Assembly (NCBI GenBank): GCA_016303225.1
Contig: JAEDMC010000001.1
Location: 1-57,578 of the forward strand
Source: Kiritimatiellia bacterium
GTDB taxonomy: Bacteria; Verrucomicrobiota; Kiritimatiellia; RFP12; UBA1067
Direction: 5' to 3'
DNA length: 57,578 bases
This document shows, in pieces, positions 3,696 to 57,479 of this stretch. Made by a program: the position numbers and the translations under genes. Position 1 is the first letter of the stretch, and each line of letters begins with the position of its first letter. Below the pieces are notes generated by a model. It worked only from the letters and a program-made list of their open reading frames with translations, searched no databases and was not told where the DNA came from.

Positions 3696-4387
3696 GGGAC
3701 CATCGAGAGAAATGCAGTGGCATTGCGATCCGTCAGAGTCTCCAGTTCGGAGAGCGACAGGCCTCGCAGCTCTGCCGTCTTCGCGGCGACATCGCGCACC
3801 GACGGACACGTCGCCGCATTTTCCGGCGTCCGGTCCGTCTCAAGAAGCAGGCGTTCAAGCGGGATCTTCTTCACCAGTTCCCGATAGTTGACGGCATGGT
3901 CGTTGAGAACCGCCGGCCCGACCGAGATATAGCCATTGAGCTTCACGATGTCAGGGATGAGTCCGTCGGAGCGAGAGAAGCCATGAAAGAGAAAAGACGA
4001 AGGTTGAATGCTGAAGGTTGAATTTCCACCATTCCTCATTCCTAATTCTAAATTCTGAATTTCTCTCACGACCTGGCCCCAGCACTTTGCGCCGTGAAGG
4101 ACGACGGGGCGTCTGAGCTCGAAGGCAAGCTTAAGCTGCGCGACGAAGACTTCGCGCATCCGCGGCGAAATCTCTTTCTGCTTCAGCCGGTCGAGGCCGA
4201 TCTCGCCAACGCCAGGGATGAGGGATGAGGGATGGGGGATGAGTTTTTGGCGGAGAGCCTCATCCCTCAGCCCTTCCTCTCCCAGCCCTTCCGCCTCCCA
4301 CGGATGAATGCCGAAGAAGTCGCGTCCGATCAGGAACTCCCGAACGGACGGATCCCCGCAGGACACATGGCAATGCGCATCCGTCAT
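3650..4387 (-). CDS. TatD family metal-dependent hydrolase (paralog 1)
   Basis: The true start MTDAHCHV at 4387 forms an ATGA overlap with the upstream stop. GEIGLD, VVLHG and ETD motifs are present. The ORF-track N-terminal extension to 4606 is rejected. The gene contains two micro-array insertions. Confidence 0.85.
   Translation of the reverse strand: MTDAHCHVSCGDPSVREFLIGRDFFGIHPWEAEGLGEEGLRDEALRQKLIPHPSSLIPGVGEIGLDRLKQKEISPRMREVFVAQLKLAFELRRPVVLHGAKCWGQVVREIQNLELGMRNGGNSTFSIQPSSFLFHGFSRSDGLIPDIVKLNGYISVGPAVLNDHAVNYRELVKKIPLERLLLETDRTPENAATCPSVRDVAAKTAELRGLSLSELETLTDRNATAFLSMVPDSLALARSARDSQA
3999..4066. repeat. Stutter micro-array (gaaggttgaat x2, cattcct x2, aattctr x3) inside tatD paralog 1
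   Basis: Sequence: gaaggttgaatgctgaaggttgaatttccaccattcctcattcctaattctaaattctgaatttc. It encodes the extra peptide EIQNLELGMRNGGNSTFSIQPSS. Confidence 0.85.
4214..4292. repeat. Heptamer micro-array (agggatg x4) plus inverted partner ctcatccct
   Basis: agggatg at 4214, 4221 and 4228, and ggggatg at 4235. The partner cctcatccctcagcccttcc.. lies at 4258-4292. It encodes LIPHPSSLIPG directly before GEIGLD. Confidence 0.85.
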
Positions 4388-5100
4388 TTGCCAAAGCGGA
4401 GCTTCAGCGCGATCTTGATCGACTCCGTCGCGATGCCAGGCGTGATCTTCGAGTAGCCGGCGACGCGGTCGGTGAAGACGATTGGAATCTCCTTGATCGC
4501 ACTGCCAGCCTTCCACGTGCGGTGGTTCATCTCCAGCTGGAACGAATAGCCCTTTGATCCGACCGTCGTGAAGTCGATCTTCTTCAGCGTCGACACGCGC
4601 CAGCACTTGAACCCGCCCGTCGGGTCCCTGAGCGGCATGCCTGTCACCGTGCGGATGAAGATGCCGCCCGCACGGGAGATGAGACGACGCTTGAACGGCC
4701 AGCCCGGCGTGTCGCCGCCCGGAACATAGCGCGAGCCGATGACGAGGTCTGCTCCTTCCATGGCTTCGATAAGCCGCGGGACGTCCTTCGGGTCGTGGGA
4801 GAAGTCGCAGTCCATCTGGATGACCAGATCGGCGCCGAGCTCGATCGCCTTCTGGAAGCCGGCGACGTAGGCGCGACCAAGACCTTCCTTCTTCTCGCGG
4901 TGCAGACAGTGGATGCGCGGCTCCGTTTTCATCATCTCCTCGATGACGTCTCCCGTCCCGTCCGGCGAGTTGTCGTCGACAAAGAGAAGTTCCAAGGTTT
5001 GAGTCTCGGGGTTTGACGATTGACGTTGGAGGACGGCATCGGCCATCTTCTTCACGTTGTCACGTTCGTCATACGTCGGGATCACTACGATCGCCTTCAT
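4384..5100 (-). CDS. GT2 polyprenol-phosphate mannosyltransferase (Dpm1/Ppm1-like)
   Basis: The start MKAIVVIPTYDERDN is consistent with the ispF stop at 5117. Motifs: FVDDNSPDGT, QMDCDFSHDP, GSRYV. Confidence 0.85.
   Translation of the reverse strand: MKAIVVIPTYDERDNVKKMADAVLQRQSSNPETQTLELLFVDDNSPDGTGDVIEEMMKTEPRIHCLHREKKEGLGRAYVAGFQKAIELGADLVIQMDCDFSHDPKDVPRLIEAMEGADLVIGSRYVPGGDTPGWPFKRRLISRAGGIFIRTVTGMPLRDPTGGFKCWRVSTLKKIDFTTVGSKGYSFQLEMNHRTWKAGSAIKEIPIVFTDRVAGYSKITPGIATESIKIALKLRFGK
4996..5029. repeat. Stutter micro-array (ggtttga-type) inside the GT2 gene
   Basis: Sequence: ggtttgagtctcggggtttgacgattgacgttgg. It encodes QRQSSNPETQTLE between conserved blocks. Confidence 0.7.
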
Positions 5101-5116
5101 CTTTTCTTCTCCACTG

Positions 5117-5596
5117 CTAAATTCGCGCCTCTTCCAACAGACAGACCGCATGAACCGAGATGCCGACACCGGCGCCGACGTCGTCCATCTTCTCGTTCGT
5201 CTTGCCCTTGACCGAGACTCGTCCCTTGCCGACGCTCATCACGGACGCGAGACGCTCGCGGATCAGCTCGATGCAGGGCCTGAGCTTCGGACGCTCGCAG
5301 ATGACCGTCGCGTCAACGTTGCCGATGCGATAGCCCGCGGCGCGGACCTCCCTCGTGACGGCAGCCAGGAGCTCGGTCGAATCGACGTCCTTCCACTGCG
5401 GATCCGTGTCGGGAAAATGCGAACCTATGTCCCCGAGCGCCGCCGCGCCGAGCAGCGCGTCGACGATCGCGTGGATGAGGACATCCGCGTCGGAATGTCC
5501 GGCGAGGCCGGTCTCGCCGGGAAACTCGATTCCGCCGAGGACGAGGCGACGTCCTTCGGCGAAGCGATGTGAATCATAACCAAAGCCTATGCGCAT
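5117..5596 (-). CDS. ispF: 2-C-methyl-D-erythritol 2,4-cyclodiphosphate synthase
   Basis: MRIGFGYDSHRF..GHSDADVLIHA..DIG. Start set at 5596; the ORF-track extension to 5659 is rejected. Confidence 0.95.
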   Translation of the reverse strand: MRIGFGYDSHRFAEGRRLVLGGIEFPGETGLAGHSDADVLIHAIVDALLGAAALGDIGSHFPDTDPQWKDVDSTELLAAVTREVRAAGYRIGNVDATVICERPKLRPCIELIRERLASVMSVGKGRVSVKGKTNEKMDDVGAGVGISVHAVCLLEEARI

Positions 5597-5600
5597 GGGA

Positions 5601-5657
5601 GATTTGACGTTTGGGGTTTGAGGTTCAACGTCAAACGTCAAACCCCAAACTTTGAAC
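5601..5657. repeat. Intercistronic palindromic micro-array (13-bp perfect stem)
   Basis: gtttggggtttga (5609-5621) pairs with tcaaaccccaaac (5638-5650). The 16-nt loop contains the coaC stop codon (5631-5633). Confidence 0.85.
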
Positions 5658-6155: not shown

Positions 6156-6156
6156 A

Positions 6157-6194
6157 GGTATTGAGGTATTGAAGTGAGAGGTATTGAGGTAATG
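6157..6194. repeat. Stutter micro-array (ggtattgag x3) between rpe and coaC
   Basis: Sequence: ggtattgaggtattgaagtgagaggtattgaggtaatg. It starts 2 nt upstream of the coaC start codon. Confidence 0.8.
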
Positions 6195-10415: not shown

Positions 10416-13400
10416 TCAACGTTCCCAGGGCTTGGGTTCCCGGGCGGCGAGGTAAATCTTCGGTTCGGGGCGGAACGTCGTGTCCGCCTGCGGAACGATC
10501 TTCGAGAGCTCCGAGAGGAACGAGAGCGAGCCCGCCACGCGGAAGCCTTCGCCGAGGTCGACGTCGAGGACGCGCCCCGTCGGGTAGTGCAGCTCGATGA
10601 TCACCGGGAGCTTGCCCGGATTCTTCACAATCGCCTCGCGGAGGCGGTTCACCTTCGCACGGATCTCCGGATCGACATACTGCATCTTGATGCGGAGTCC
10701 CTTCGAGACGAGCGGCAGCGCGTGCTCGAGCGGATAAGCCTCCTTCACCGTAAAGCTCAGGTCGCCGACCTGCGGATGCTCCTTGTGGACGTCTTCCTTC
10801 GCGTACGTCACGCGGTGCGAGACCTCGCCGCAGACCATCACGAGCTGATCGACCTTCTCCTCGAGCCCCAGCGCCGCGGCCTTCTCCCACACCTTCGCGA
10901 ACGCCGAGCCTTCGCCGCGGCCGACGCCGTCGTCCATCTGCAGGATCGCCCACTTGCCGCCGACCGATCCGTCGGGGCGCGGCTTCGGCGTCTTCACCAG
11001 GCACCCGCTCAGCATCGCGACGACGCGTACGTCCAGCTTCTTCAAGAGGATCTTGTCGACGTTCTTGCGGATCGCCTTCTTCTCCGCGTTGACCGCCTTG
11101 TCGAACTTCTCCTTGTCGAACATCGAGACTTCGCCCTTCGCCCGCACGACGTTGCGCGCCATCGACTTCAGCTGCCAGTCGTTCTCCTTCGCCTGCTTGA
11201 GCAGCGCCTCCACCGAACCTTCGTCGACAGGCGCGGCCTCGGGAGGGGCGTCGTCGTCGGACGGAGACGACTGCGACTGCTGGGACTGCGGTGACACGTC
11301 GGCAGCTTCGGGATCGCCTTCGGGGAGCTCCTCTTCGGGCTCCTTCTTCTTCTCGATCATCGAAAGCGAGAACGGCAGCGACTCATAGGTCTCCTCGCCG
11401 TCGGGGCCCTTGCCGACGTCGACCATCACGGTCGAGAGCTCGGAGACGACCTTGCGGCAGGCGGCCATCGGATCGCCCGAGATGTACACGCCGCACAGGT
11501 CGCGTTCGTTCTTGAGGTCTTCCGCCGGGGCGAACGGGGGACAGTCCCTCAGCTCGTCGTCGCTGTAGGTCTCCTCGCCGCCGGCCATCAGGTCGAAGAA
11601 GCTCGTCTGCGCGCTGGCCTTTTCCTTCGCGCGCGCCTGCGCCTTCTTGAGGACGTACTCGATGTTGTTGAAGAGCTTCGCGCGATTCGGCTCCAAGGTC
11701 GCGAAACCGCCGACGCGCGTCAGGTTCTCGAGAACGCGCTTGTTGACGACGTTCGAGCCCGCGAGGCGCATGCAGAAGTCGACGAAGCCGGTGTAGGGTC
11801 CGTTCGCCTCGCGCTCCGCGACGATCGCCTCCGCCGCGGCGGAACCGACGCCCTTGATGCCGCCGAGGCCGTAGCGGATGCCCTTCGCGTCGGGGGTCGG
11901 GACGAACCGCGCGCCGGACTCGTTGACGTCGGGGAGTCGCAGCTCGAGGCCGATTTCCTTCGCTTCCGCGACGAAGCCGGGGAGCTTGTCGAAGTTGCCG
12001 ATTTCGGACGAGATCTGGGCGCACATGAACTCGGCCGGATAGTGCGCCTTCAGGTAGCCCGTCTGATACGCGACCCAGGCGTAGCAGACCGAGTGCGACT
12101 TGTTGAACGCGTACGACGCGAACGCCTCCCAGTCGGTCCAGATCTTGTCGATGAGCTTGCGCGCCTCGGCTTCGTCCTGCCACTTGTCGATGCGGAACTT
12201 CGGGTTCGCGAGGCAGCCCTTGACGAACTTCTCCTTCAGCTCCGCCATGATGTCCATGAGCTTCTTGCCCATCGCCTTGCGGAGCTTGTCCGACTCGCCG
12301 CGCGTGAAGCCGGCGAGGTCGCGCGAGAGCAACATCACCTGTTCCTGATAGACCGTGATGCCGTACGTGTCCTTGAGGCGCGCCTCCATCTCCGGGTGGT
12401 CGTAGGTGACGGGCTTGCGGCCCTGCTTGCGGTCGATGAAGTCGGGGATGTAGCCCATGGGGCCCGGACGGTACAGCGCGTTCATGGCGACGAGGTCCGT
12501 CAGCTTCTCGGGCTGCAGCTCCATGAGGTACTTCTTCATGCCCGCCGATTCGAACTGGAAGAGTCCGGTCGTCTCGCCGCGGCCGAAGAGCTGGTAGGTC
12601 TCCTTGTCGTCGTCGGGAATCTTGTCCGTGTCGAGCTCGCCCGCCTCGTTGCGAATCTTCTCCGGCACGCGCGGATTGTTCTTCCCGAGAAGCGCGACGC
12701 ACTCCTTCTCGACGGAAAGCGTCTTCAATCCGAGGAAGTCCATCTTCAGAAGTCCGACCGGCTCGACGAAGTGTCCGTCATACTGAGTCGTCAGCAGCTT
12801 GTCTTCCTTCTTCCCTTCACCTTCGCCCTTCGCTTTCTTCCCGCCTCCTTTTTCCGGCGTCGGCATGACGGGGAGGGTTTCGGCGATCGGATCGCGGGAG
12901 ATGATGACGCCGCAGGCGTGGACGCCCGGCTGGCGGATGCAGCCCTCGAGGCGTCCGGCGCGTTCCATGAGCTTATGGACGACGGGATCGTCGGAGTTGA
13001 ACGCGGCCTCGAGCTCGGGGGATTCCTTGCGGGCCTTCTTGAAGTTGATCTTCGGCGTGTCGGGGACGTACGAGGCGAGCTTGTTCGTGTCCGCCAGCGG
13101 ATAGTCCATCACGCGGCCGACGTCCTTGATCGCCGACTTCGCGGCCATCTGTCCGAACGTCACGATGTGCGCGACGTGGTCCGCCCCGTAGCGGCGCGTC
13201 ACGTAGTCGAGGACGCGCTCGCGGCCGGCGTCGTCGAAGTCGACGTCGATATCGGGCATGGAGATGCGGTCGGGGTTGAGGAAGCGTTCGAACAGGAGGT
13301 CGTACTTGAGCGGATCGACGTTGGTGATCCAGAGCGCATAGGCGACGGCCGAACCCGCGGCGGATCCGCGCCCGGGGCCGACCCACACGCCGCACTCCTC

Positions 13401-14657
13401 GCGTGCGGCGCGGATGTAGTCGCGGACGATGAGGAAGTAGCCGGGAAAGCCCATCAGCTTGATCGTGTCGAGCTCGAACTGCACGCGTTCCTTCACGTCC
13501 TGCGGAATGACGCCTTCGGCGTCGCCCCAGCGGATCTTCGCGCCGGCCCAGACGAGCGAGGCGAGATAGTCGGCCTCGAACTTGATGCGAAGCACCTTCT
13601 CGTATCCGCCCAGGCGGTCGAAGTTGTTGGGCTTCTGGACGTTGAACTCGGCCTTCAGCTTCTCCTCGTCGAACTCCTTCGCGTAGCCCTCCTCGGTGCC
13701 GAACTCGACCGGAATCGCAAACTTCGGCATGATCGGCGGCGAGTCGAGCTCGTACTCCTCGATCATGTCCGCGACGGCCTTCGTGTTCGCGACGACTTCG
13801 GGACATTCGGCGAAGAGGGCGCGCATCTCCTCCTCGGTCTTGAAGTATTCCTGGCCGGTGTAGACCATGCGCTTCTCGTCGGACATCTTCTTGCCCGTCG
13901 AAAGCGCGAGGAGGACGTCATGCGAATCGTCGTCCGCCGCGTCGAGAAAGTGGACGTCGTTCGTGGCGATGACGCGGATGTCGAGCTTCTTCCCGAGCTC
14001 GAGCATGCCCTTGACGACCTTGACCTGGCGCTCGTAGAGGTCGACGAAGTCGGCCTGCGCAGAGAGCGGGATGTCGGGACCGGACTTCGCGGCCTTGTGG
14101 ACCATCACCTCGAGCGAGTAGTTTTCGCCGAAGAGGTCCTTGTACCACTTCGCGGCGCGCTCGGCCTCGGCCATGTTCCCCGCGTCGATCGCGTGCGCGA
14201 CTTCGCCGGCGATGCACGCGGCGGAGCAGTGGAGACCCTCGTGGTATTTCTCGAGGAGGGCGTGGTCGATTCGCGCGTTGTGGTAGAAGCCGTTGATGTG
14301 CGCCTCGGACATGAGGCGGACGAGGTTGTGGTACCCCGTCTTGTTCATCGCGTGGAGGCAAAGGTGATGGCGGTACTCGTTCTTGTCGCGCGACTTGTAG
14401 TCGCCGGACGAGGTGACGTACGCCTCGCAGCCGAGGATGGGCTTGACGCGGACGCCGGCGAGGTCGCCGTAGGTCTTCTCCTTCTTAGACCGGCACTCGT
14501 CGTAGAAGCTCTTCAGGGCGAAGAGGTTGCCGTGGTCTGTGACCGCCAGGGCGGGCATGCCGAGAGAGCGCGCCTTGCGGACGAGCGGCACGATCTGGCA
14601 CTGCCCGTCGAGAAGCGAATAGGTCGTGTGCAGGTGAAGATGAACGAAATCTGACAT
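10416..14657 (-). CDS. dnaE: DNA polymerase III subunit alpha
   Basis: PHP domain FVHLHLHTTYSLLDG plus polymerase core and OB fold. ATG at 14657 is preferred over GTG at 14660. Contains low-complexity inserts (GGGKKAKGEGEGKKEDK; SPQSQQSQSSPSDDD). Confidence 0.97.
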   Translation of the reverse strand: MSDFVHLHLHTTYSLLDGQCQIVPLVRKARSLGMPALAVTDHGNLFALKSFYDECRSKKEKTYGDLAGVRVKPILGCEAYVTSSGDYKSRDKNEYRHHLCLHAMNKTGYHNLVRLMSEAHINGFYHNARIDHALLEKYHEGLHCSAACIAGEVAHAIDAGNMAEAERAAKWYKDLFGENYSLEVMVHKAAKSGPDIPLSAQADFVDLYERQVKVVKGMLELGKKLDIRVIATNDVHFLDAADDDSHDVLLALSTGKKMSDEKRMVYTGQEYFKTEEEMRALFAECPEVVANTKAVADMIEEYELDSPPIMPKFAIPVEFGTEEGYAKEFDEEKLKAEFNVQKPNNFDRLGGYEKVLRIKFEADYLASLVWAGAKIRWGDAEGVIPQDVKERVQFELDTIKLMGFPGYFLIVRDYIRAAREECGVWVGPGRGSAAGSAVAYALWITNVDPLKYDLLFERFLNPDRISMPDIDVDFDDAGRERVLDYVTRRYGADHVAHIVTFGQMAAKSAIKDVGRVMDYPLADTNKLASYVPDTPKINFKKARKESPELEAAFNSDDPVVHKLMERAGRLEGCIRQPGVHACGVIISRDPIAETLPVMPTPEKGGGKKAKGEGEGKKEDKLLTTQYDGHFVEPVGLLKMDFLGLKTLSVEKECVALLGKNNPRVPEKIRNEAGELDTDKIPDDDKETYQLFGRGETTGLFQFESAGMKKYLMELQPEKLTDLVAMNALYRPGPMGYIPDFIDRKQGRKPVTYDHPEMEARLKDTYGITVYQEQVMLLSRDLAGFTRGESDKLRKAMGKKLMDIMAELKEKFVKGCLANPKFRIDKWQDEAEARKLIDKIWTDWEAFASYAFNKSHSVCYAWVAYQTGYLKAHYPAEFMCAQISSEIGNFDKLPGFVAEAKEIGLELRLPDVNESGARFVPTPDAKGIRYGLGGIKGVGSAAAEAIVAEREANGPYTGFVDFCMRLAGSNVVNKRVLENLTRVGGFATLEPNRAKLFNNIEYVLKKAQARAKEKASAQTSFFDLMAGGEETYSDDELRDCPPFAPAEDLKNERDLCGVYISGDPMAACRKVVSELSTVMVDVGKGPDGEETYESLPFSLSMIEKKKEPEEELPEGDPEAADVSPQSQQSQSSPSDDDAPPEAAPVDEGSVEALLKQAKENDWQLKSMARNVVRAKGEVSMFDKEKFDKAVNAEKKAIRKNVDKILLKKLDVRVVAMLSGCLVKTPKPRPDGSVGGKWAILQMDDGVGRGEGSAFAKVWEKAAALGLEEKVDQLVMVCGEVSHRVTYAKEDVHKEHPQVGDLSFTVKEAYPLEHALPLVSKGLRIKMQYVDPEIRAKVNRLREAIVKNPGKLPVIIELHYPTGRVLDVDLGEGFRVAGSLSFLSELSKIVPQADTTFRPEPKIYLAAREPKPWER
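11269..11289. repeat. gactgc hexamer micro-repeat in the dnaE linker
   Basis: gactgc at 11269, 11275 and 11284. It encodes the SQQSQS part of an acidic/Ser-rich insert. Confidence 0.6.
12803..12855. repeat. Pyrimidine-only low-complexity tract inside dnaE
   Basis: Sequence: cttccttcttcccttcaccttcgcccttcgctttcttcccgcctcctttttcc. It encodes GGGKKAKGEGEGKKEDK. Confidence 0.6.
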
Positions 14658-14664
14658 CACCCAT

Positions 14665-16117: not shown

Positions 16118-16440
16118 CAGTGTCCGGCGCGGTCGTCGGTCTTCTCGGGGAAGGCGACCTTCACGCCCTTTTCATCAATCGCGTAGCGGATGTTCGCCTG
16201 AGCGATCTGCATTGAATCGTACTTCAAGGTCAGCGTCTTCGCCTGCATGTCCCAGACGTAGGAGTCCTTCCGCACACCCGAATACTTCGCGAGCGCGGCG
16301 ACGACCGTCTCCTTTTGCGCCTCAGTGAGCGACGGCATCGTCACCGTCATCTCACGAATATCCTCGCGGCGACAGCCGCAGAAGAGAAAGGAAAAAGTAA
16401 AAAGTAAAAGTGAAAAAGTATGGAAGATTGTTTTGTTCAT
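16117..16440 (-). CDS. Small lipoprotein with HMA-like ferredoxin fold, no CxxC
   Basis: MNKTIFHTFSLLLFTFSFLFCGC signal/lipobox-like segment followed by a beta-alpha-beta-beta-alpha-beta-like body. The alternative TTG start at 16458 is in frame. Confidence 0.55.
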   Translation of the reverse strand: MNKTIFHTFSLLLFTFSFLFCGCRREDIREMTVTMPSLTEAQKETVVAALAKYSGVRKDSYVWDMQAKTLTLKYDSMQIAQANIRYAIDEKGVKVAFPEKTDDRAGH

Positions 16441-16481
16441 GTCTTTGCCTTTCGTCAAAAGTCGTTTACTTTTTCACTTTT
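16406..16481. repeat. 15-bp perfect inverted repeat flanking the lipoprotein start codon (aaaagtr micro-array family)
   Basis: aaaagtgaaaaagta at 16406-16420 and tactttttcactttt at 16467-16481. The 46-nt spacer holds the ATG at 16440-16438. Confidence 0.9.
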
Positions 16482-16486
16482 CCTTT

Positions 16487-25886: not shown

Positions 25887-25894
25887 GTTCCAAA

Positions 25895-25900
25895 ATTATA
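25895..25900 (-). promoter_or_regulatory. -10 box TATAAT, 8 nt before the TTG start of the metalloenzyme gene
   Basis: Minus strand ggTATAATtttggaacTTG. Confidence 0.5.
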
Positions 25901-26098
25901 CCACAAAAATGATAAAATAAGCAAGTAGGCTTTCATGTTGATAATCATTTGATAATTGTAGACAGAATTTCACAACTTCTTCTTGACAAACTCCATTTTA
26001 GCTTTAAATGATTGATTTTATTCACAATAGTATAATTTCGTGACTTGATTGCCGCATAATGTTATATTGTAAATTGTTCATAATCAAGTTAACAATTT

Positions 26099-38055: not shown

Positions 38056-38093
38056 CGTCTAAAGTCAAACGTCTAAGGTCTAAAGTCAAACGC
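38056..38093. repeat. 15-nt direct repeat x2 (gtctaaagtcaaacg) filling the pilC/gspF-like leader
   Basis: Copies at 38057-38071 and 38078-38092. The second copy ends 2 nt before the ATG at 38095. Confidence 0.9.
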
Positions 38094-44652: not shown

Positions 44653-44730
44653 AATTATCAATGAGGAATTGTGAATGAGGGAACACCGCCATTCTGAAAT
44701 TCTGAATTTTAAATTCTAAATTCATGATTC
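44653..44730. repeat. Intergenic composite micro-array (aatgagg-type plus attctga/aattcta-type)
   Basis: aattatcaatgaggaattgtgaatgaggg .. attctgaaattctgaattttaaattctaaattc. It shares the 12- and 13-nt strings aattctaaattc and aaattctgaattt with the tatD-1 insert at 4044-4062. Confidence 0.85.
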
Positions 44731-45075: not shown

Positions 45076-46861
45076 CTTTCTCCTTTCCCTGAAAGACGTC
45101 TCCCTCGCCTTCGGCGGACCGCAGGTCCTGGATAAGGTTTCGCTCTCGATTCACAAGGGGCTTCGCGCGGCGCTTACAGGCCGCAATGGCGAGGGCAAGT
45201 CGACGCTCTTCAAGGTCATTGCCGGCACGCTCGAGCCTGACAACGGCGAGATCGTCAGGGCTCCGGGACTCAAGGTGGTTTACGTGAGCCAGGGGGTGGA
45301 GGATTTAGGCGTCGATCGAGATCTGTCGGCGTCTCATCCCCGTTCCGGCGGTCAGATCCGCCGCGCCCGTCTCGAGGAGGCGATTCTCTCTCAGCCCGAC
45401 GTCTTGCTGCTTGACGAGCCGACGAACCATCTCGACGTCGAGGCGATCGACTGGCTTGAGGGGATGATCCGCCGCCAGCGCGAGATGGCGGTCCTCATTG
45501 TCACGCACGACCGGCGTTTTCTGAAGCGTGTCGCGACGAAGATCTTCGACCTCGATCGCGGAGAGCTTTCAGGCTGGGAGTGTGACTATCCGACGTTCGT
45601 GAAGCGCAAGGCGGAGCTGATGGCGGACGAAGCCGTCTACTGGGAGCGCAAGTCGAAGAAGCTCGCGCAGGAAGAGGCGTGGATTCGCCGCGGCGTCAAG
45701 GCGCGCACCACCCGCAACGAGGGACGTGTCGCCGCGCTCATGAAGCTGCGCGAAGAATTCGCCGCACGCCGCACGCAGGTCGGCACCGCGACGATGAAGC
45801 TCGACACCGCCGCCCCCGGCGGCGTCAGGGTTTTGAAGATCGAGAAGTTGGGCTTCGGGTACGAGTTGGAGTCTCAAGTCGGAGTTGGAGAGCGGAATTT
45901 CAGCATCCATTCTCCAACTCCAAACTCCAACTTGATTTTCTCCAACTTCACCGCCGATGTCCTCCGCGGCGAGCGTATCGGCATTCTTGGTCGCAATGGC
46001 GCGGGCAAGACCACGCTCCTCAGGCTTCTGACCGGACGACTCCAGCCGACCGAGGGTTCGGTCACCATCGGAACGAACGTCCAGATGACGTTCCTCGATC
46101 AGCTCCGGAGCGAGATGAATCCAGAGCTAACCGTCGGCGAGAACATCGCGAAGGACCGCGACGAGGTAATCGTCGGCGGCGTGAAGAAACACGTCTACTC
46201 GTACCTTTCCGACTTTCTCTTCTCGCCCGAACGCGTGCGCACGCCGGTGAAGGCGCTTTCCGGCGGAGAACGCGCGCGTCTCATGCTCGCGAAACTCTTC
46301 TTGAAGCCAGCGAATCTGCTCGTGATGGACGAGCCGACCAATGACCTTGACATCGAGACCTTGGAGCTTCTCGAGGAGCAGCTCCTGAACTACAAGGGCA
46401 CGCTCCTCCTCGTCTCGCACGACCGCGAGTTCCTTGACAACGTCGTGACCTCGACGTTCGTTCTGGAAGGCGACGGCACGGTTAAGCAGTTCCCAGGCGG
46501 GTATGCGGACTACGTGCGTCAGCGGGGAAATTCAAACACAGGGGTACAGCGGCACAGAGCTGAAGAGCCGTGCAGTTCGAAACCTGGGGTTCAAGACCCA
46601 GCCCTATCAGCGTCTCCGTGTCTCTGTGTCAAAAACAAGAAGCTGAGCTACAACGAGAAACGCGAACTCGAGCAACTGCCCGCAAGGATCGAGGCGCTGG
46701 AAAAGGAGATCGCGGAGATCGAGGCCTTTCTTTCGGATGGCACCAACTACGCGAAAGATCCCCTCCGCTGCAAATCCAGTTCTGAGCGTCTGCCGCTCGC
46801 GAGAACCGAACTCGACGTCGCCGAGAGCCGCTGGCTCGAACTCGAAGAGCGAAGCGCTTGA
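45068..46861 (+). CDS. ABC-F family ATPase (Uup/YheS-like) with a shortened first NBD
   Basis: Two NBDs (GRNGEGKST / GRNGAGKTT; LLLDEPTNHLD / LVMDEPTNDLD) and a C-terminal coiled coil. Only about 46 aa separate Walker A from the SGGQ signature in NBD1. Confidence 0.85.
   Translation: MSDFLLSLKDVSLAFGGPQVLDKVSLSIHKGLRAALTGRNGEGKSTLFKVIAGTLEPDNGEIVRAPGLKVVYVSQGVEDLGVDRDLSASHPRSGGQIRRARLEEAILSQPDVLLLDEPTNHLDVEAIDWLEGMIRRQREMAVLIVTHDRRFLKRVATKIFDLDRGELSGWECDYPTFVKRKAELMADEAVYWERKSKKLAQEEAWIRRGVKARTTRNEGRVAALMKLREEFAARRTQVGTATMKLDTAAPGGVRVLKIEKLGFGYELESQVGVGERNFSIHSPTPNSNLIFSNFTADVLRGERIGILGRNGAGKTTLLRLLTGRLQPTEGSVTIGTNVQMTFLDQLRSEMNPELTVGENIAKDRDEVIVGGVKKHVYSYLSDFLFSPERVRTPVKALSGGERARLMLAKLFLKPANLLVMDEPTNDLDIETLELLEEQLLNYKGTLLLVSHDREFLDNVVTSTFVLEGDGTVKQFPGGYADYVRQRGNSNTGVQRHRAEEPCSSKPGVQDPALSASPCLCVKNKKLSYNEKRELEQLPARIEALEKEIAEIEAFLSDGTNYAKDPLRCKSSSERLPLARTELDVAESRWLELEERSA
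45863..45949. repeat. Inverted micro-array (gagttggag-type versus ctccaac-type) in the ABC-F gene
   Basis: ggagttggaga (45881-91) pairs with tctccaactcc (45911-21), with extra copies on each side. Encodes ELESQVGVGERNFSIHSPTPNSNLIFSNF. Confidence 0.85.
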
Positions 46862-46914: not shown

Positions 46915-47343
46915 ATGAGCGAAGAAAAACACATTGAAACGATTGCGCGCGGCGTTTGCGTTGCGGACGGAAAGATCCTGCTCTGCTTCCCGAAGGACCG
47001 GAGCTATGCCTATCTTCCCGGCGGACACATCGAGTTCGGCGAGACGGGGCGCGTCGCGCTCGTGCGCGAGATGAAGGAGGAGACCGGACTCGACGCGACC
47101 GCGGGCGACCTTCTTGGCGTCGTCGAGTCGAGCTTCGTCCAGAAGGGCGAGCAGCACTGCGAGATCAATCTCATATACAAGATGGGGATTAGTGGTCAGG
47201 GATCGGGGATTAGGGAGGAGATAATGAGTTGCGAGGACTGGATTTGCTTCGATTGGATCGACTGTGATAAAATAGATTCCGTCAATCTTCTCCCTCCCGA
47301 AATGAAACCCTATTGCTATTCTTCCCCATCCCCTAATCCCTAA
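46915..47343 (+). CDS. NUDIX hydrolase
   Basis: NUDIX box GGHIEFGETGRVALVREMKEETGL. The ATG at 46915 lies 7 nt after TGGTATAAT. The ORF-track start at 46858 is rejected. Confidence 0.85.
   Translation: MSEEKHIETIARGVCVADGKILLCFPKDRSYAYLPGGHIEFGETGRVALVREMKEETGLDATAGDLLGVVESSFVQKGEQHCEINLIYKMGISGQGSGIREEIMSCEDWICFDWIDCDKIDSVNLLPPEMKPYCYSSPSPNP
47184..47218. repeat. Micro-array ggggattag-type in the NUDIX gene
   Basis: Sequence: ggggattagtggtcagggatcggggattagggagg. Encodes GISGQGSGIRE. Confidence 0.8.
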
Positions 47344-47361
47344 TCTCTACCCACTGACCCC
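47324..47361. repeat. Inverted partner micro-array (ccctaatc-type) spanning the NUDIX stop up to the rsmI start
   Basis: Sequence: ccccatcccctaatccctaatctctacccactgacccc. ccctaatccc (47331-40) is the reverse complement of gggattaggg (47206-15). Confidence 0.8.
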
Positions 47362-47362
47362 T

Positions 47363-48067
47363 ATGCTACACGTCGTCGCCACTCCAATCGGGAATCTCGG
47401 CGATCTTTCGCCGCGGGCGCTGGAGGCGTTCAAGTCCGCAGCGGTCATCGCGTGCGAGGACACTCGGCGCACCTGGCAGCTGCTGACGCATTTCGGGATT
47501 CCCCGTCCCGCCGACATGTTCTCCTACCGCCAGGGCAACGAGGAGCGCATCACCGAGCGGATTGTCGCGGACGTGAGGGCTGGCAAGGAGGTGGCGCTCT
47601 GTTCGGACGGAGGATATCCCGCGATTTCCGATCCCGGCTACCGCGTCATCCGCACCTGCGCGCAGGAGGGAATTCCCTATGAGGTCATCCCCGGCGCAAG
47701 CGCCGTCAACGTCGCGCTGCTGATGAGCGGACTCTCCACGTCGTCCTTTACCTTCCGCGGTTTTCCTCCGCGCGGACCGGGCGCGCTCCGCAACTGGTTC
47801 GCTGAAGATGCGGACAAGGAGCACACGCTCATCTGCTACGAGTCGCCGTTCCGCATTGCCGCAACGCTCGAGGCCGCGCTCGATGCGCTTGGCGACCGCG
47901 AGGCGGCGGTCTGCATCGAGCTCACGAAGCTGCACGAGCGCGTGAGCCGCGGCTATCTTTCCGATCTCGTCGCGGAATACAAGGACGCGAAGGTCAAGGG
48001 CGAAGTCGCCTTGGTCATTGCGGGGAACAATCCCAAGTTCAGGAAAAGGACGAATGATGAATGCTAA
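47363..48067 (+). CDS. rsmI: 16S rRNA (cytidine1402-2'-O)-methyltransferase
   Basis: MLHVVATPIGNLGDLSPRA..ACEDTR.. tetrapyrrole-methylase-fold signature. Confidence 0.9.
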   Translation: MLHVVATPIGNLGDLSPRALEAFKSAAVIACEDTRRTWQLLTHFGIPRPADMFSYRQGNEERITERIVADVRAGKEVALCSDGGYPAISDPGYRVIRTCAQEGIPYEVIPGASAVNVALLMSGLSTSSFTFRGFPPRGPGALRNWFAEDADKEHTLICYESPFRIAATLEAALDALGDREAAVCIELTKLHERVSRGYLSDLVAEYKDAKVKGEVALVIAGNNPKFRKRTNDEC

Positions 48068-48086
48068 CTTCATCATTTGATTCGGC

Positions 48087-48578
48087 ATGATCGTTCTTGG
48101 CATAGACACCTCCTTGCGTTCGACCGGCTACGGCGTGCTCTCTGTCGAGGGCAGTCGCATGCGGTGCGTTGCCTGCGGGAACATCCCCAATAAGGCGACG
48201 TTGCCGCTCACGGCCTGCTTGAAGATGATTCATGCGAAAGTCGTGGAGCTCATCGCGACGCACAAGCCGGACGTCATGGCGATTGAGTCGGTCATCTACG
48301 GCAAGAACGCCGGGACGATGCTCGTCCTCGGCGAAGCGCGCGGCGCGGTGCTGACGGCGGCGGTCGATGCGGACGTGCCGGTCTACGAATACGAGCCGCG
48401 GCGGATGAAGAAAGCGATCTGTGGCAACGGCCTTGCGGAAAAGGAACAGACTCAGCGGATGGTCAAGACGCTCCTCGGCCTCGCCGAACTCCCGCAGAAC
48501 GACGCGGCCGACGCCCTCGGCCTCGCCATCTGTCATGTCCACGCCAACTCCCTCATCTCCCGCGAGAAACCCATCTGA
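48087..48578 (+). CDS. ruvC: Crossover junction endodeoxyribonuclease RuvC
   Basis: MIVLGIDTSLRSTGYGV.., ..AIE.. and DAADALGLAICH motifs. Confidence 0.93.
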   Translation: MIVLGIDTSLRSTGYGVLSVEGSRMRCVACGNIPNKATLPLTACLKMIHAKVVELIATHKPDVMAIESVIYGKNAGTMLVLGEARGAVLTAAVDADVPVYEYEPRRMKKAICGNGLAEKEQTQRMVKTLLGLAELPQNDAADALGLAICHVHANSLISREKPI

Positions 48579-48631
48579 AATCAGGCCCCGCGAAACCCCA
48601 ATTTGAGATTTGAGATTTGAAATCTGATTTC
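48575..48631. repeat. Micro-array atttgag x2 (+atttgaaatctgatttc) with flanking inverted ctgaaatcag
   Basis: The reverse complement contains ctcaaatctcaaat, identical to 32214-32227. ctgaaatcag at 48575-84 opposes ctgatttc at 48624-31. Confidence 0.8.
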
Positions 48632-48782
48632 TGCGAACTGTGTCCGCGCCGATGCGGAAAACGACCTGGCTATTGCGGCGCGGGGAACTGCCCTCGCGTC
48701 TTCCGGTGGGGACCTCACTTCGGCGCGATGACGCTCTGTACGAATGCTTGAAAACACATAAGGAACAAGGAGTAAGGCACCG

Positions 48783-52712: not shown

Positions 52713-52713
52713 G

Positions 52714-54392: not shown

Positions 54393-56033
54393 ATGACGCT
54401 GATCAAAAACGGAACGATCATCGACGGTCAAGGCACGCTTGCCTTTGTCGGTGACGTTCTCGTTGAAGACGATCGAATCGTCGAGGTTATTCCTGCTGGC
54501 GAACTTCAAAACTTCAAAACCTCAGAACCTCAAAACCTCATCGACGCCTCCGGCCTCATCGTCTCGCCTGGTTTCATCGATGCTCACACGCATTCAGACG
54601 CCTATCTCGTGATTGAGCCCGACGCGCCGTCGAAGGTGACGCAGGGCATCACGACGGAGATCAACGGACAGTGCGGCGGCAGCGTTGCGCCGCGTTACGG
54701 CGAGGCGCGCCTCAGCTCTGACTGGGCCGCGGTTCTGGGCGGCCGCCTCACCTGGCGTTCGCTCGCCGAGTACCGCGAGGTGCTTGCCGCGGCGAAGCCC
54801 GCGGTCAACACCGTTCAGTTCATCGGCCACAATACGCTGCGGTCTTCGGTCATCGGTTATGCCGCGCGCGCTGCCGGCGACGAAGACTTGCGCGAGATGT
54901 CGCGTCTTCTCGACGAATCGCTTGATGCGGGCGGCTGGGGCCTCACGACGGGGCTCATCTACCAGCCCGGCAAGTATTCGACGCCGGCGGAAGTCGTGGC
55001 GCTCGCAAAGGTTGCAGCGGCGAAGGGCGGGTATTACGCGACGCACATGCGCAGCGAGGGCGACCACATTCTCGAGGCGATCGACGAGGTGATCGAGCTC
55101 GTGAAGGCGACGGGCATCAGGGCGGAGATCTCGCATCTGAAGACGAGCGGACGGAAGAACTGGCACAAGATCGACGCGGTCCTCGATAAGATCGAAGGCG
55201 CGATGAGCGAGGGGCTTCTCCTGGGAAGCGATCGCTATCCGTATTGTGCGGCGGGCACCGATCTTGACGTCGTTCTCCCCGACTGGGCGCAGGAGGGCGG
55301 AGCACCAGCAGAGCTGGCGCGATTGCAGATTTCAAATCTCAGATCTCAGATCATTGAGGAGATCAATGCGCTTGACCGCGACTGGTCGACGGTGATGATC
55401 GGCGGCACGTGGGCGGAGGAGAACAAGCGGTACAGCGGCAAGACGGTCGCGGAGATCTTAGGACTTGAGACATTAGACTTTAGACCGGGCCTCGCGTCTT
55501 CCGTCTCAAGTCCTCTCAAGTCTTCCGTCTTAAGTCTTAAGTCCTCCCCTGGCGAGCTCATCACCTCAATTCTCCTGGCGGACGGCTGCAAGACGGGCGC
55601 GTTTTTCTTCGGCATGTCCGAGGAGAATCTGGCGAAGATCTATTCGCGTCCGTGGATTGTGCCGGGGAGTGACGCGTCGTTGCGTGCGCCGTGGGGCCCG
55701 CTCGGCAAGGATCATCCGCATCCGCGCGCGTATGCGACGATGCCGGAGTTCTATCGTCGTGTGCGTGCGCTCGGGTTCAGCCGCGAGGAGACGGTCGCGC
55801 AGATGACGTCCGTCATCGCGGACCGCTTCGGAATAAGGGGCCGCGGACGGATCGAAAAGGGCGCGTATGCAGACCTCGTCATTTGGAATGAGGCGGAGTT
55901 CAAGGCCAAGGCGACGTTTACCGATCCGCACCAGTTCACTGGCGGCGTGAAGGCCGTGATGACGAACGGCGTCATTTCCTATTGCGACGGCAAGTTCACC
56001 GGCAACCGCGGCGGGAGGTTTTTGGAGAGATGA
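54393..56033 (+). CDS. N-acyl-D-amino-acid deacylase (D-aminoacylase) family amidohydrolase
   Basis: 546 aa. SPGFIDAHTHSD, ATHMRSEG and ISHLK motifs. Carries three micro-array inserts. Confidence 0.8.
   Translation: MTLIKNGTIIDGQGTLAFVGDVLVEDDRIVEVIPAGELQNFKTSEPQNLIDASGLIVSPGFIDAHTHSDAYLVIEPDAPSKVTQGITTEINGQCGGSVAPRYGEARLSSDWAAVLGGRLTWRSLAEYREVLAAAKPAVNTVQFIGHNTLRSSVIGYAARAAGDEDLREMSRLLDESLDAGGWGLTTGLIYQPGKYSTPAEVVALAKVAAAKGGYYATHMRSEGDHILEAIDEVIELVKATGIRAEISHLKTSGRKNWHKIDAVLDKIEGAMSEGLLLGSDRYPYCAAGTDLDVVLPDWAQEGGAPAELARLQISNLRSQIIEEINALDRDWSTVMIGGTWAEENKRYSGKTVAEILGLETLDFRPGLASSVSSPLKSSVLSLKSSPGELITSILLADGCKTGAFFFGMSEENLAKIYSRPWIVPGSDASLRAPWGPLGKDHPHPRAYATMPEFYRRVRALGFSREETVAQMTSVIADRFGIRGRGRIEKGAYADLVIWNEAEFKAKATFTDPHQFTGGVKAVMTNGVISYCDGKFTGNRGGRFLER
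54501..54540. repeat. Octamer micro-array (acttcaaa x2, acctcaga, acctcaaa, acctca)
   Basis: Encodes ELQNFKTSEPQNL in the N-terminal beta-domain of the deacylase. Confidence 0.85.
55326..55353. repeat. Heptamer micro-array gatttca/aatctca/gatctca
   Basis: Sequence: cagatttcaaatctcagatctcagatca. Encodes QISNLRSQI. Same subfamily as 37273, 32192 and 48601. Confidence 0.85.
55457..55547. repeat. Inverted micro-array pair (aggacttgagac / gtctcaagtcct plus gtcttaa copies)
   Basis: 12-bp perfect IR at 55460-71 and 55503-14. Encodes LGLETLDFRPGLASSVSSPLKSSVLSLKSSPG. Confidence 0.85.
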
Positions 56034-56791
56034 GGCTTTACGATACTCATTGTCACTTCGAGCGTGCCGATCCGACGGAGATCGCGTTGATTCTCGAACG
56101 CGCGAAAGCGGCCGGAGTCGAGAAACTGATGGCAGTCGGCGGTTCGTCATCGCTGAACGAATCGGCCGCGCTCGCCGTCGAGGTTGCTGCGGAGTCTGTC
56201 GTTGCGCCGCAGGTTGTCTGCGCCGTCGGGTTGGATCGGGACCAGGTCGGGAAGACTTGCGCGCCTCAAACCTCAAACCTCAAACCTCAGACTTCTCTCC
56301 GCGCATGGGGTGAGATCGGCCTCGACTACCACTATTCGCCCGAGACGCGCGAGCAGCAGCTCGCGCTCTTTGCCGAGCAGCTCGAGGAAGCGAGGCGGCG
56401 TGACCTGCCGGTCGTCATTCATACGCGTGAGGCCGATGACGACACGGTGGCATTGCTCCGCGAGATCCCGTCCCGCGGCATCATCCACTGCTACACGGGC
56501 ACGGTGGAGTTCGCGAAGCGGTTTCTCGACCTCGGCTTCTACATTTCGATTTCGGGCATCGTCACGTTCAAGCCGGCGGAGAACGTGCGGGAGGTCGCGC
56601 GGATCCTGCCCGACGACCGGTTTCTCATCGAAACGGACTCGCCGTTTCTCGCGCCGGTGCCGATGCGGGGGAATCCAAACGAACCGGCGTTCATCCGTCA
56701 TACCTGCGAGTTCCTTGCGAACCTCCGGGGCGTTTCGGCCGACGCCTTCGCCGACCTGACGTTTGCCAATGCGGAAAGTGTGCTGGGATGA
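56030..56791 (+). CDS. TatD family metal-dependent hydrolase (paralog 2)
   Basis: MRLYDTHCHF, GEIGLDYHY, VVIHTR, ETDSPFL. ATGA overlap with the upstream stop. The ORF-track start at 55982 is rejected. Confidence 0.9.
   Translation: MRLYDTHCHFERADPTEIALILERAKAAGVEKLMAVGGSSSLNESAALAVEVAAESVVAPQVVCAVGLDRDQVGKTCAPQTSNLKPQTSLRAWGEIGLDYHYSPETREQQLALFAEQLEEARRRDLPVVIHTREADDDTVALLREIPSRGIIHCYTGTVEFAKRFLDLGFYISISGIVTFKPAENVREVARILPDDRFLIETDSPFLAPVPMRGNPNEPAFIRHTCEFLANLRGVSADAFADLTFANAESVLG
56264..56295. repeat. Heptamer micro-array cctcaaa x3 + cctcaga
   Basis: Exact copies at 56264, 56271 and 56278. Encodes PQTSNLKPQTS just before GEIGLD of tatD paralog 2. Confidence 0.9.
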
Positions 56792-57351
56792 CGGCGCAGT
56801 TTGACGAGTACTTCATGAAGATGGCCTTGCGCGAGGCGGAGAAGGCCGCGTCGGAGGACGAGGTGCCGCTCGGGGCGGTCGTTGTCGCGCCGGCGGTTCT
56901 GGAGCCGGCTCATGACGGACATCCCGCCGTCTTTGATCCGAATCCCGCCGTGGCGCGAATTCTCGGCCGGGCGCACAACATGTCCGAGGGGATGAAGGAC
57001 GCGACGGCGCATGCGGAGATGCTGGCGATGTCCGCGGCGTTTCAGGCCGTCGGCGACTGGCGGCTCACGGGTGCTCGGCTGTACGTGACGAAGGAGCCGT
57101 GTCCGATGTGCGCGGGCGCGATCGTTCTCGCGCGGCTGGATGCGGTCGTCTGGGGTGTCAGCGACCCGAAGCGCGGCGGCGGGACGGCTTTCGGCATCTT
57201 CGACCATCCCGGCATTAACCACCATCCCGCGATCGTCGCCGGCATTTGCGAAATGGAGTCAAAGGCGATGCTGCAGAGTTTTTTCCAAGCGAGACGAAGT
57301 GCTCGGTCAGTCAACACCGCTCACGCGGTCTTGACCGACCTCGGCATCTGA
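56788..57351 (+). CDS. tadA: tRNA adenosine(34) deaminase
   Basis: HAEMLAM and PCPMCAGA zinc motifs. An insertion of about 20 aa after GAVVV contains the direct repeat atcccgccgt at 56921 and 56942. Confidence 0.9.
   Translation: MTAQFDEYFMKMALREAEKAASEDEVPLGAVVVAPAVLEPAHDGHPAVFDPNPAVARILGRAHNMSEGMKDATAHAEMLAMSAAFQAVGDWRLTGARLYVTKEPCPMCAGAIVLARLDAVVWGVSDPKRGGGTAFGIFDHPGINHHPAIVAGICEMESKAMLQSFFQARRSARSVNTAHAVLTDLGI
56921..56951. repeat. 10-nt direct repeat (atcccgccgt x2, 21-nt period) within the tadA insertion
   Basis: Encodes HPAVFDPNPAV. The region is not present in the canonical TadA loop as I remember it. Confidence 0.6.
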
Positions 57352-57377
57352 GCATCTGAGCAAAAGTGCATCTGAGC
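57344..57377. repeat. Octamer micro-array gcatctga x3 overlapping the tadA stop
   Basis: gcatctga at 57344 and 57352, and gcatctgagc at 57368. Confidence 0.85.
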
Positions 57378-57443
57378 TTTTCGAGGCATGACAGTCGGGA
57401 CAATCTCCGCGCGCACAGGGATTGGCACGTCCACACGAGAAAG

Positions 57444-57479
57444 GCCCAGATGCTCAATCGCCCAGATGCCCAAATGCTG
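57444..57479. repeat. Inverted partner micro-array (cccagatgc x2, ccaaatgc)
   Basis: cagatgc is the reverse complement of gcatctg. Lies about 70 nt downstream of the first array. Confidence 0.75.

Follow-up and report, generated by a model that had tools for sequence, protein, structure and literature searches.

Dispersed heptanucleotide repeat arrays with inverted partners in housekeeping genes and gene junctions of a Kiritimatiellia bacterium

The 57,578-nt stretch of a Kiritimatiellia bacterium genome analysed here (assembly GCA_016303225.1, contig JAEDMC010000001.1, positions 1 to 57,578; hereafter the window) carries many short arrays in which a 7- or 8-nt unit is repeated imperfectly head to tail, both at gene junctions and in frame within conserved genes. 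The window has a base composition of ~61% G+C and is ~95% coding and ~5% non-coding, and its gene content is that of ordinary housekeeping: DnaE, sigma-54, PtsI, HprK, LptB, MnmE, T2SS-F, NIF3, trigger factor, ClpP/X, PanD, ABC-F, RuvC, two TatD paralogs and a TadA-like deaminase. The replication origin falls inside the window, because the gene order gidA-dnaA-dnaN-rlmL ... mnmE, a flip of gene strand from minus to plus at ~26 kb and a coincident minimum of the cumulative GC skew are all found there. The host is a gut or rumen member of Kiritimatiellia (PVC group): close homologs of its MnmE are restricted to metagenome-assembled genomes of that group from these two habitats, the top identity in a species-representative collection being 64%.

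Arrays, inverted partners and their placement

Tandem-repeat finder (TRF) output for the window comprised 74 rows, compared with 16.6 +/- 3.6 in shuffled sequence; the chance expectation was taken from 30 dinucleotide shuffles, done per 2-kb block. Rows of period 7 numbered 23 versus 1.93 expected (12-fold) and were dispersed over 4-57 kb, and rows of period 8 numbered 9 versus 2.7. A first-pass annotation of this DNA had reported stutter arrays of 7-8 nt and proposed a comparison with dinucleotide shuffles; all of its examples were located by TRF, at or within a few bases of where it had placed them, and both periods proved to be in excess. Four GC-rich rows of two copies each (11129, 17781, 36082, 45760) are no more than chance would give. 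The same arrays were recovered in 20 independent metagenome assemblies of the species and are therefore not assembly artefacts. The arrays, with the hairpins and palindromes that accompany them, are listed here by position.

4030-4065, minus strand: CATTCCT / ATTCTRA array (TRF), in frame in TatD paralog a (gene 3650-4387)
4214-4300, minus strand: inverted pair in TatD paralog a, AGGGATG x4.3 (4214-4243) and a complement-containing arm (4258-4300); inverted repeat I16, 94% complementary; RNA fold -28 kcal/mol, z -2.1; in frame
5599-5650, minus strand: GAGGTTT/AACGTCA-type hairpin at the junction of flavoprotein stop and IspF start, ending 2 nt short of the IspF ATG (5596); I22; z -4.4
6156-6191, minus strand: 8-nt array CAATACCT x4.6 (sense strand), abutting the flavoprotein ATG at 6155
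16387-16492, minus strand: inverted pair AAAGTAA x4.9 / TTTACTT x4.0 (I2, I7) with 26-nt arms and a 46-nt loop, 96% complementary, the top-scoring inverted repeat of the window; z -3.7; covers the end of a NifS-like gene and the signal-peptide region of a small lipoprotein-like open reading frame (ORF)
22936-22965, minus strand: AGGAATG/AGGGATG x4.3, in frame in the ORF upstream of lptB, close to its N-terminus; peptide LIPHSSFLIP
32192-32233, plus strand: hairpin in the helix-rich ORF 32016-32651; I23; 17-nt arms, 94% complementary; z -3.0
36802-36864, plus strand: MnmE array 1, a perfect 14-bp palindrome (36802-36832), 5 nt, then ATCAGGG x4.0; peptide IRDQGPGIR
37243-37308, plus strand: MnmE array 2, a perfect 12-bp palindrome (37243-37270) encoding ELAD/VREL, 3 nt, then GATCTCA x5.1 from 37273; peptide SQISDLRSRIS
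37630-37697, plus strand: MnmE array 3, 8-nt array AACCGCTC x8.5 (TRF), in the G-domain helix and strand preceding the TKCD motif
38057-38087, plus strand: intergenic GTCTAAA x4.4 (TRF), ending 7 nt ahead of the T2SS-F start codon
40975-41000, plus strand: AGGTCAG x3.7 (TRF) in NIF3; peptide RSEVGGQRSEV
44639-44729, plus strand: inverted pair in the ClpX-PanD spacer, GAATTATCAATGAG x2.1 and ATTCTAA x4.6; I3; z -2.7
45864-45932, plus strand: 69-nt hairpin in ABC-F with AGTTGGAG / CTCCAAA arms; I13, I14; -37.8 kcal/mol, z -6.95
47182-47364, plus strand: 34-nt inverted arms around the NUDIX C-terminus, GGGATT-type units at 47182-47215 and CCCTAAT x2.7 at 47331-47364; I1, the longest inverted repeat of the window
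48052-48076, plus strand: 25-nt stutter-plus-hairpin, GAATGAT GAATGCT ... TTCATCAT, at the end of the TP_methylase gene; z -3.9
48601-48640, plus strand: intergenic ATTTGAG x2.9 downstream of RuvC, polymorphic in unit number
54502-54540, plus strand: 8-nt array AACCTCAA x4.9 in a D-aminoacylase-like amidohydrolase
55326-55352, plus strand: CAGATCT x3.9 (TRF) in the amidohydrolase; peptide QISNLRSQI
55460-55543, plus strand: inverted pair in the amidohydrolase, GACTTTA x3.4 / GTCTTCC-GTCTCAA-GTCTTAA composite; I17; z -3.3
56264-56289, plus strand: perfect CCTCAAA x3.7 (TRF) in TatD paralog b; peptide PQTSNLKPQTS
57340-57477, plus strand: weak inverted pair at and beyond the end of the TadA-like deaminase gene, 8-nt arrays GCATCTGA x4.2 / complement x4.8; I11, 77% complementary

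All eight inverted partners that had been described were found, together with a ninth pair at 44639/44698, and all nine rank among the 25 longest inverted repeats of the window, the top three included. With our own scorer, seven inverted repeats reached a score of at least 14 versus 0.18 expected; array pairs account for four of these. In the pair at 16395/16467 both arms carry the same irregular units and are 96% complementary. Eight of the ten segments that were folded gave z values between -2.1 and -6.95, the poorly folding ones being the pair at 57340/57440 (z -1.7) and the segment 48560-48645 downstream of RuvC (z -0.3). Perfect palindromes lie just upstream, by 3-5 nt, of MnmE arrays 1 and 2.

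About 18 of the 28 non-trivial arrays are gene-internal and ~10 are intergenic or at junctions, a placement that agrees with the earlier description of in-frame arrays in conserved genes and of arrays at gene boundaries; in described heptamer systems 85-93% are intergenic. Per base, array density is nevertheless ~7 times higher in the non-coding ~5% of the window. In 12 of the in-gene arrays with at least 2.7 copies the sense-strand units are free of stop codons in all three frames, and stop-containing units (ATTCTAA, GTCTAAA, ATTTGAG) are confined to intergenic sites. For three junction arrays the distance from their end to a following start codon is 0-7 nt, namely 6156-6191 (0 nt), 5599-5625 (2 nt) and 38057-38087 (7 nt). 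The peptides and most of the host genes had been named correctly, although the array assigned to NifS touches only the last codon and the junction, the array of the proposed GT2 enzyme is a weak 2.8-copy repeat, and the LptC assignment was derived solely from position upstream of lptB.

Not every in-gene array is an insertion. Alignment with solved homologs and orthologs shows the host protein to be longer in ABC-F, where the hairpin lies in frame ahead of the second ATPase domain (~+20 residues relative to E. coli Uup), in NIF3 (+6 relative to YbgI), in TatD paralog a (~+7 relative to YcfH at the 4214-4300 pair, between the HP and GEIGLD motifs) and in the amidohydrolase (+6 at 54502-54540, the later arrays lying inside a region of ~+60). 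In contrast, the PQTSNLKPQTS array of TatD paralog b occupies the helix before GEIGLD with no change of length (ungapped against YcfH, 1yix), and MnmE array 2 rewrites a helix, again with no change of length relative to 28 Kiritimatiellia orthologs, while retaining the ISD...IS of Nostoc MnmE. MnmE array 3 adds 2 residues and covers the G-domain helix and strand that precede the NKxD-type motif. The view that the arrays always add peptides, or are lineage-specific insertions throughout, thus fails for MnmE arrays 2 and 3 and TatD paralog b, where helices or strands are replaced with a gain of 0 to 2 residues. An AlphaFold2 model of MnmE (13-sequence alignment) had a mean pLDDT of 37 and was unusable; structural placement comes from alignments to solved homologs. 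The arrays of the two TatD paralogs coincide in structural position, which argues for tolerance of the site, not for targeting.

Variation among strains and related lineages

Among loci of close strains, 98-99.4% identical to the window, indels are rare and concentrated at repeats. The array at 48601 has one extra 7-nt ATTTGAG unit in two of these loci (L042 and L046), and seven of ten strains lack 14 nt (two units, at 5633) of the 5599-5650 hairpin, a difference that shifts the flavoprotein C-terminus from 174-176 to 184 residues. These unit-step polymorphisms show slippage directly. The proposed search for polymorphism between genomes thus yielded copy-number and presence variants at junctions, to which unit-number changes between strains are limited, but in-gene arrays of constant length: across 20 strain loci gene-internal arrays had no indels, and all 102 of the 102 MnmE variants of at least 95% identity that were analysed are 438 residues long. 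The residues of the MnmE arrays are nonetheless polymorphic at 28% of positions versus 9% in the rest of the protein (Fisher p = 4.5e-4), and the density of single-nucleotide polymorphisms (SNPs) is 3.7% in arrays versus 1.95% elsewhere (p = 0.01). The array at 4030-4065 (10 strains) and the pair at 4214-4300 differ by SNPs without indels, the ClpX-PanD spacer pair has several SNPs and the NUDIX arms are SNP-rich. Because in-gene indels are absent and polymorphism is raised, the in-gene arrays behave as length-frozen segments under relaxed constraint and are not contingency loci, and a hypermutable insertion process, which had been suggested as their origin, does not fit their fixed length. 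An apparent pair of +7 and -7 indels in ClpX of L046 was set aside, since the segment is divergent, probably through recombination, and reflects no stutter event. A longer tandem unit also varies: the 28-nt unit cccgcgagaaacccatctgaaatcaggc at 48559-48586, which spans the RuvC end (stop codon at 48578), occurs in one, two or three copies among strains.

Loci of sister species, at 85% DNA identity (L050) or 78% (L048 and L049), document the turnover of arrays over a longer interval. At the site of MnmE array 3 the window has AACCGCTC x8.5, L050 has AACCGCTT x7.5, L048 has TCTCACCC x9 and L049 has CGTCTTCCGTCTCG x2.9. Sister loci carry GTTAAGCG x5-7 at the junction of APH and Na-H exchanger genes, where the window has none; two further features of L050, GAGAATT x4 after gidA and an in-frame MnmE hairpin of 78 nt, are missing from the window, and L050 lacks 21 nt of the array at 38057-38087. 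The arm and loop at 32192-32212 form a 21-nt in-frame insertion that is found in none of the three sister loci, adds 7 residues to ORF 32016 and is the reverse complement (16/17) of the neighbouring TCTCAAA array, with which it makes the hairpin. The block 37243-37308 is 66 nt long in all four loci, and within it the arms of the palindrome 37243-37270 match at 12/12 positions in the window, 9/12 in L050 and 1/12 in L048 and L049, which at the position of MnmE array 2 have only CTCAAGT x2.1. MnmE array 1 with its 14-bp palindrome (36802-36864) is identical in L048 and L049, and in L050 the palindrome has 6/14 arm matches and the 78-nt hairpin insertion is present instead. As a separate matter, the first ~500 nt of mnmE (36720-37300) are nearly identical to positions 10001-10580 of L048 and L049, compared with ~78% identity over the remaining region, which suggests a recent recombination between species in the 5′ part of this gene.

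Beyond these species the distribution of period-7 arrays is patchy. The sister species (L048, L050) have 7 versus 1.0 expected and three Phycisphaerae-like loci 27 versus 0.9, whereas 28 other Kiritimatiellia loci are not enriched (25 versus 18.1) and six other phyla are at expectation (7 versus 7.1). In the Phycisphaerae-like loci the units are quite different, about half of the arrays lie in long ORFs and inverted pairs are present. A patchy distribution with unrelated units argues for a process and not for one particular element. Individual Phycisphaerae-like arrays (L031 3608-3738; L030 1181-1263 and 4210-4313) include a 14.7-copy CGAACCA array, in frame in MnmE with the peptide NHEPRIT repeated, back-to-back arrays, and an array pair that ends at the MnmE start codon.

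Origin of the arrays

The arrays belong to the known heptamer repeat class of cyanobacteria, Xanthomonas and Beggiatoaceae, with which they share dispersed head-to-tail 7-nt units, compositional excess, related motifs, strain variation in unit number and convergent inverted pairs. In many genomes no long simple-sequence repeat is commoner than the heptamer, for which an origin by polymerase slippage has been suggested (PMC4679880). In Xanthomonas the (GGGANTN)n / GGGAATC arrays, most of them of about four units, are 89-93% intergenic; in 70-75 cases two arrays stand close together as a convergent inverted pair, and sister species do not keep arrays at the same genes (Rehm et al. 2015, PMC4692102). 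Dispersed degenerate 7-nt arrays with convergent inverted pairs and between-species turnover are therefore not new as a class, and the GGGATN subfamily of the window (AGGGATG, ATCAGGG, GGGGATT) even resembles the Xanthomonas unit. However, Xanthomonas has a single G-rich core, whereas about two thirds of the window arrays lie in genes and most of their units are AT-richer (YCTCAAA or GTCTNNN); the length-neutral coding rewrites and adjacent perfect palindromes are likewise features not described for Xanthomonas. The cyanobacterial STRR and GGGGAYT repeats and those of Beggiatoaceae have the same heptamer period, two to six copies, variant units within an array, many arrays 0-7 nt before start codons and stop-free in-ORF copies. 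In Beggiatoaceae most TAACTGA repeats stop ~1 nt short of a start codon, with only 10-11 in ORFs in a stop-free orientation, and in Beggiatoa 145 of 170 sets are intergenic, the in-ORF copies being at protein ends or in hypothetical proteins (PMC4679880, PMC4692102). Those genomes have one or a few units each, in contrast to the many coexisting units of the window, whose arrays stand between conserved motifs of MnmE, TatD, NIF3, ABC-F and the amidohydrolase. Heavy occupancy of essential genes, in-place rewriting at constant length and the association with palindromes are thus what is unusual here. Among the papers covered by our literature search, none linked heptamer repeats to the PVC phyla.

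We consider it probable that the arrays are heptanucleotide, in some cases octanucleotide, simple-sequence repeats made by slippage and template switching and then filtered by selection. Slippage in a 7-nt register would add or remove units, as the strain polymorphisms show it to do. Short-range template switching, in which the nascent or the opposite strand is copied, would produce an adjacent reverse-complement arm or a perfect palindrome, and the insertion of an inverted copy, the lineage-specific palindromes and the shared irregular arms are as expected from such switching. The idea of templated snap-back repair, raised in the first-pass annotation, accordingly finds direct support in the 21-nt insertion at 32192 and the lineage-specific palindrome at 37243-37270. 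Template switching is known to make perfect hairpins and clustered multi-base changes in genes (PMC8794818, PMC8604942, PMC7202029), and these two features of the window fit that pattern of quasipalindrome mutation, in which a reverse-complement repeat is made or perfected and changes are clustered. Copying out of register by 7-8 nt could also overwrite neighbouring bases, so that the repeat would spread at constant length, and we infer that template switching of this kind caused the length-neutral rewrites. Within genes selection would retain arrays that keep the frame, have no sense-strand stops and fall in tolerant segments, after which their length would be frozen, and at gene junctions unit number would continue to drift; it is this filter, of reading frame, stop codons and tolerance in the structure, that explains where arrays persist. 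If junction arrays have a function, such as that of G-poor leaders abutting start codons, it would be secondary. Contingency loci likewise consist of tandem short repeats whose unit number is changed by slippage, but they act by frame-shift on/off switching, and no frame-shifting repeat number was found in populations here, where in-gene arrays keep one length through 102 variants and sit in housekeeping genes.

Several observations weigh against this account. The units are not arbitrary: among the 22 canonical units there are 19 one-mismatch links, versus 5.0 +/- 2.3 for composition-matched random heptamers, which bears out the proposed sequence subfamilies in the form of two clusters, YCTCAAA / GTCTNNN with 12 units and GGGATN with 4. 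ATCTCAGATCTCAGATC is common to MnmE and the amidohydrolase, which are unrelated loci, and GTCTTCCGTCTCRAGTCCT occurs in the window amidohydrolase and, in another reading frame, in MnmE of L048 and L049; local slippage alone would not predict either. The assertion that slippage does not suffice was on the one hand too strong, since +7 and 14 nt changes segregate, but it holds for local slippage alone with respect to these composite strings. At 48052 the 25-nt insert, which the window shares with four strain loci and which six others lack, segregates as one unit. Template switching is represented by a handful of events whose polarity was assigned by parsimony against loci 15-22% divergent, and an insertion followed by a compensating deletion could equally yield length-neutral arrays. 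Template-switch mutations have been described as sporadic, not as seeding dozens of loci, and have not been linked to a 7-nt direct-repeat register; neither that register nor the restriction to some lineages is explained by slippage and template switching, although a contact of the polymerase has been put forward for the register by Mrazek et al., insofar as their idea is relayed in PMC4679880.

A stronger version of the slippage and template-switching account, which we regard as possible but rather doubtful, is that this lineage, and independently the Phycisphaerae group, has an unusually active templated misalignment, comprising 7-8-nt re-priming and fold-back, that rewrites short stretches of sequence where they stand, those for helices and strands of essential proteins among them. 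Something peculiar to the replisome or to repair could be its cause (compare the unusually long DnaE of the window, 1414 residues). If true, it would leave a recognisable mutational signature and provide a steady supply of new protein segments and hairpins.

The sharing of strings between distant arrays bears on the alternative that the arrays are non-autonomous mobile mini-elements, that is hairpins of the kind of MITEs (transposable elements of the miniature inverted-repeat type), doublets of repetitive extragenic palindromic sequences (REPINs) or Rickettsia palindromic elements (RPEs), copied by an enzyme encoded elsewhere and decaying by slippage. All of the exact strings reported as shared are present: aattctaaattc at 4044 and 44712, aaattctgaattt at 4050 and 44697, ctcaaatctcaaat at 32214 and in reverse complement at 48601, and gggatgagg at 4215, 4222 and 22937, the last having been placed slightly off, at 4221 and 22955. 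By array, 12-13-mers of 4030-4065 recur in 44691-44723 and a 14-mer recurs in reverse complement at 22943; a 16-mer of array 48601 recurs in reverse complement at 32213; the array at 55326-55352 has the same unit and reading frame as MnmE array 2 and a 17-mer in common with 37274; and the GTCT composite of 55460-55543 recurs in L048 and L049 MnmE in another reading frame. Such words are common throughout the window (837 pairs of at least 12 nt), and a single shared string therefore proves little. Array-to-array pairs are nonetheless enriched, with 9 versus ~0.3 expected from their 1.8% footprint (~30-fold), and ~4 of the 18 shared words that reach 16 nt or more are of this kind. Because units form families and composite strings occur at unrelated genes, a copy-and-paste element or conversion between arrays stays a rival, and it is helped by the recurrence of the composite GTCT-core string, which two sister species carry at three gene sites without homology and in differing frames, by the 25-nt hairpin that strains have or lack as a whole, and by whole in-frame hairpins, such as those of ABC-F (69 nt) and L050 MnmE (78 nt), that are like Rickettsia palindromic elements (PMC10969869). 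The latter, in-frame palindromic DNA in unrelated housekeeping genes that stay intact, also provide a precedent against the earlier argument that REP- or MITE-type elements are not tolerated in essential genes (PMC10969869).

We nevertheless think a mobile origin unlikely. The flanks have no conserved ends or terminal inverted repeats, no target-site duplication was found at the 21-nt, 25-nt, 69-nt and 78-nt insertions, and sizes are continuous from 17 to 90 nt. Rickettsia palindromic elements, by comparison, are ~150 bp long, fall into defined families and encode a conserved peptide (reviewed in PMC10969869); in-frame insertion into housekeeping genes is found in the window as well, but the features there have no fixed-length consensus, consist of 7-nt stutters and in some cases are not insertions. 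Nor does the window have the conserved palindrome sequence of REP or REPIN elements, and most copies lie in genes. In the Phycisphaerae-like loci unrelated units are arranged in the same architecture, the 21-nt insertion at 32192 has its source in the adjacent array and not in a distant copy, and several arrays are length-neutral. The only transposase within the 57.6-kb window is a fragmented ISAs1 without similarity to the arrays. A search of public metagenomes for the composite string GTCTTCCGTCTCRAGTCCTC gave a single match, in an unrelated 68% GC contig, a result that is uninformative on within-genome dispersal. In that contig (L061) the same GTCTTCC-GTCTCGA-GTCCTCA composite as in the window amidohydrolase array stands at 397-423 and 555-575.

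We give similarly little credence to the proposal that the arrays are selected cis-elements, with those at junctions serving as G-poor, unstructured leaders for translation or as hairpins for mRNA stabilisation or processing and the in-gene copies being by-products. The three junction arrays 0-7 nt before a start codon are in sense orientation, with the same placement in sister species and in L030, and the TAACTGA repeats of Beggiatoaceae share this positional preference (PMC4679880). The ~7-fold density in non-coding DNA, the good folding of most pairs (z -2.1 to -7) and the conservation of MnmE array 1 in L048 and L049 point the same way, and some G-rich GGGATN arrays could be quadruplex or protein-binding sites. 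However, the junction arrays at 34336, 27895 and 38044 have been gained or lost between sister species, unit number varies among strains, arrays contain more SNPs than their surroundings, two thirds of them are gene-internal, and terminator-like sites never fall at arrays. A role as intrinsic terminators was dropped for that reason: a scan of 37.9-57.6 kb gave 12 sites versus 16.4 expected, none at an array. Rfam covariance models gave no family matches in the window at gathering thresholds.

That the arrays are products of chance, composition or assembly is refuted by the 12-fold period-7 excess over shuffles, the 7 inverted repeats scoring at least 14 versus 0.18 expected and the recurrence in 20 independent assemblies. 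The four chance-level GC-rich two-copy rows and the 837 shared-word pairs speak for that reading, which has next to no probability.

Although heptamer repeats are abundant in bacteria, their origin and 7-nt register are not understood, and this lineage is a natural test system for both. Hundreds of metagenome strains ~99% identical and sister species at 78-85% make the birth, inverted copying, replacement and freezing of arrays visible, many of them in essential genes with solved structures. Repeats can overwrite coding sequence at constant length; the resulting multi-residue changes would mislead ordinary substitution models, and such rewrites create strong mRNA hairpins within genes.

Other features of the window

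Scans for tRNA and tmRNA genes found none in the window. The origin region (25887-30780) holds gidA (26119-27897), dnaA (27986-29419) and dnaN (29644-30780), which are only 40-41% G+C versus 61% for the genome and 44-48% in sister loci. A DnaA-box-like word, TTATCAACA, occurs three times versus 0.09 expected (25936, 32655, 32698), beside short repeats of the TGTTGATAA type, and the gidA coding region contains two copies of the perfect 16-nt palindrome TGTTCCACGTGGAACA with a spacing of 18 nt (26801-26850).

The ISAs1-family transposase lies in fragments at 23212-25016 on the strand opposite to its neighbours; its first ORF, of 449 residues, also matches DruA and DDE_Tnp_1_assoc, and the remainder of the transposase is in 24633-25016. 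DnaE (Pol III alpha, 10416-14660) is 1414 residues long, versus 1317-1328 in sister species and a typical bacterial length of roughly 1160. The LptB ORF (21156-22523) has an N-terminal extension of ~215 residues ahead of the ATPase domain, which may be a fused or mis-started upstream gene. Finally, the spacer between TatD and HEAT genes (3247-3683) holds CT-rich repeats (3247-3360), a 50-nt tandem repeat of 3.7 copies with 94% matches (3463-3646) and, at 3667-3683, an inverted copy of part of that repeat's unit, and its length among strains ranges from 248 to 402 nt.

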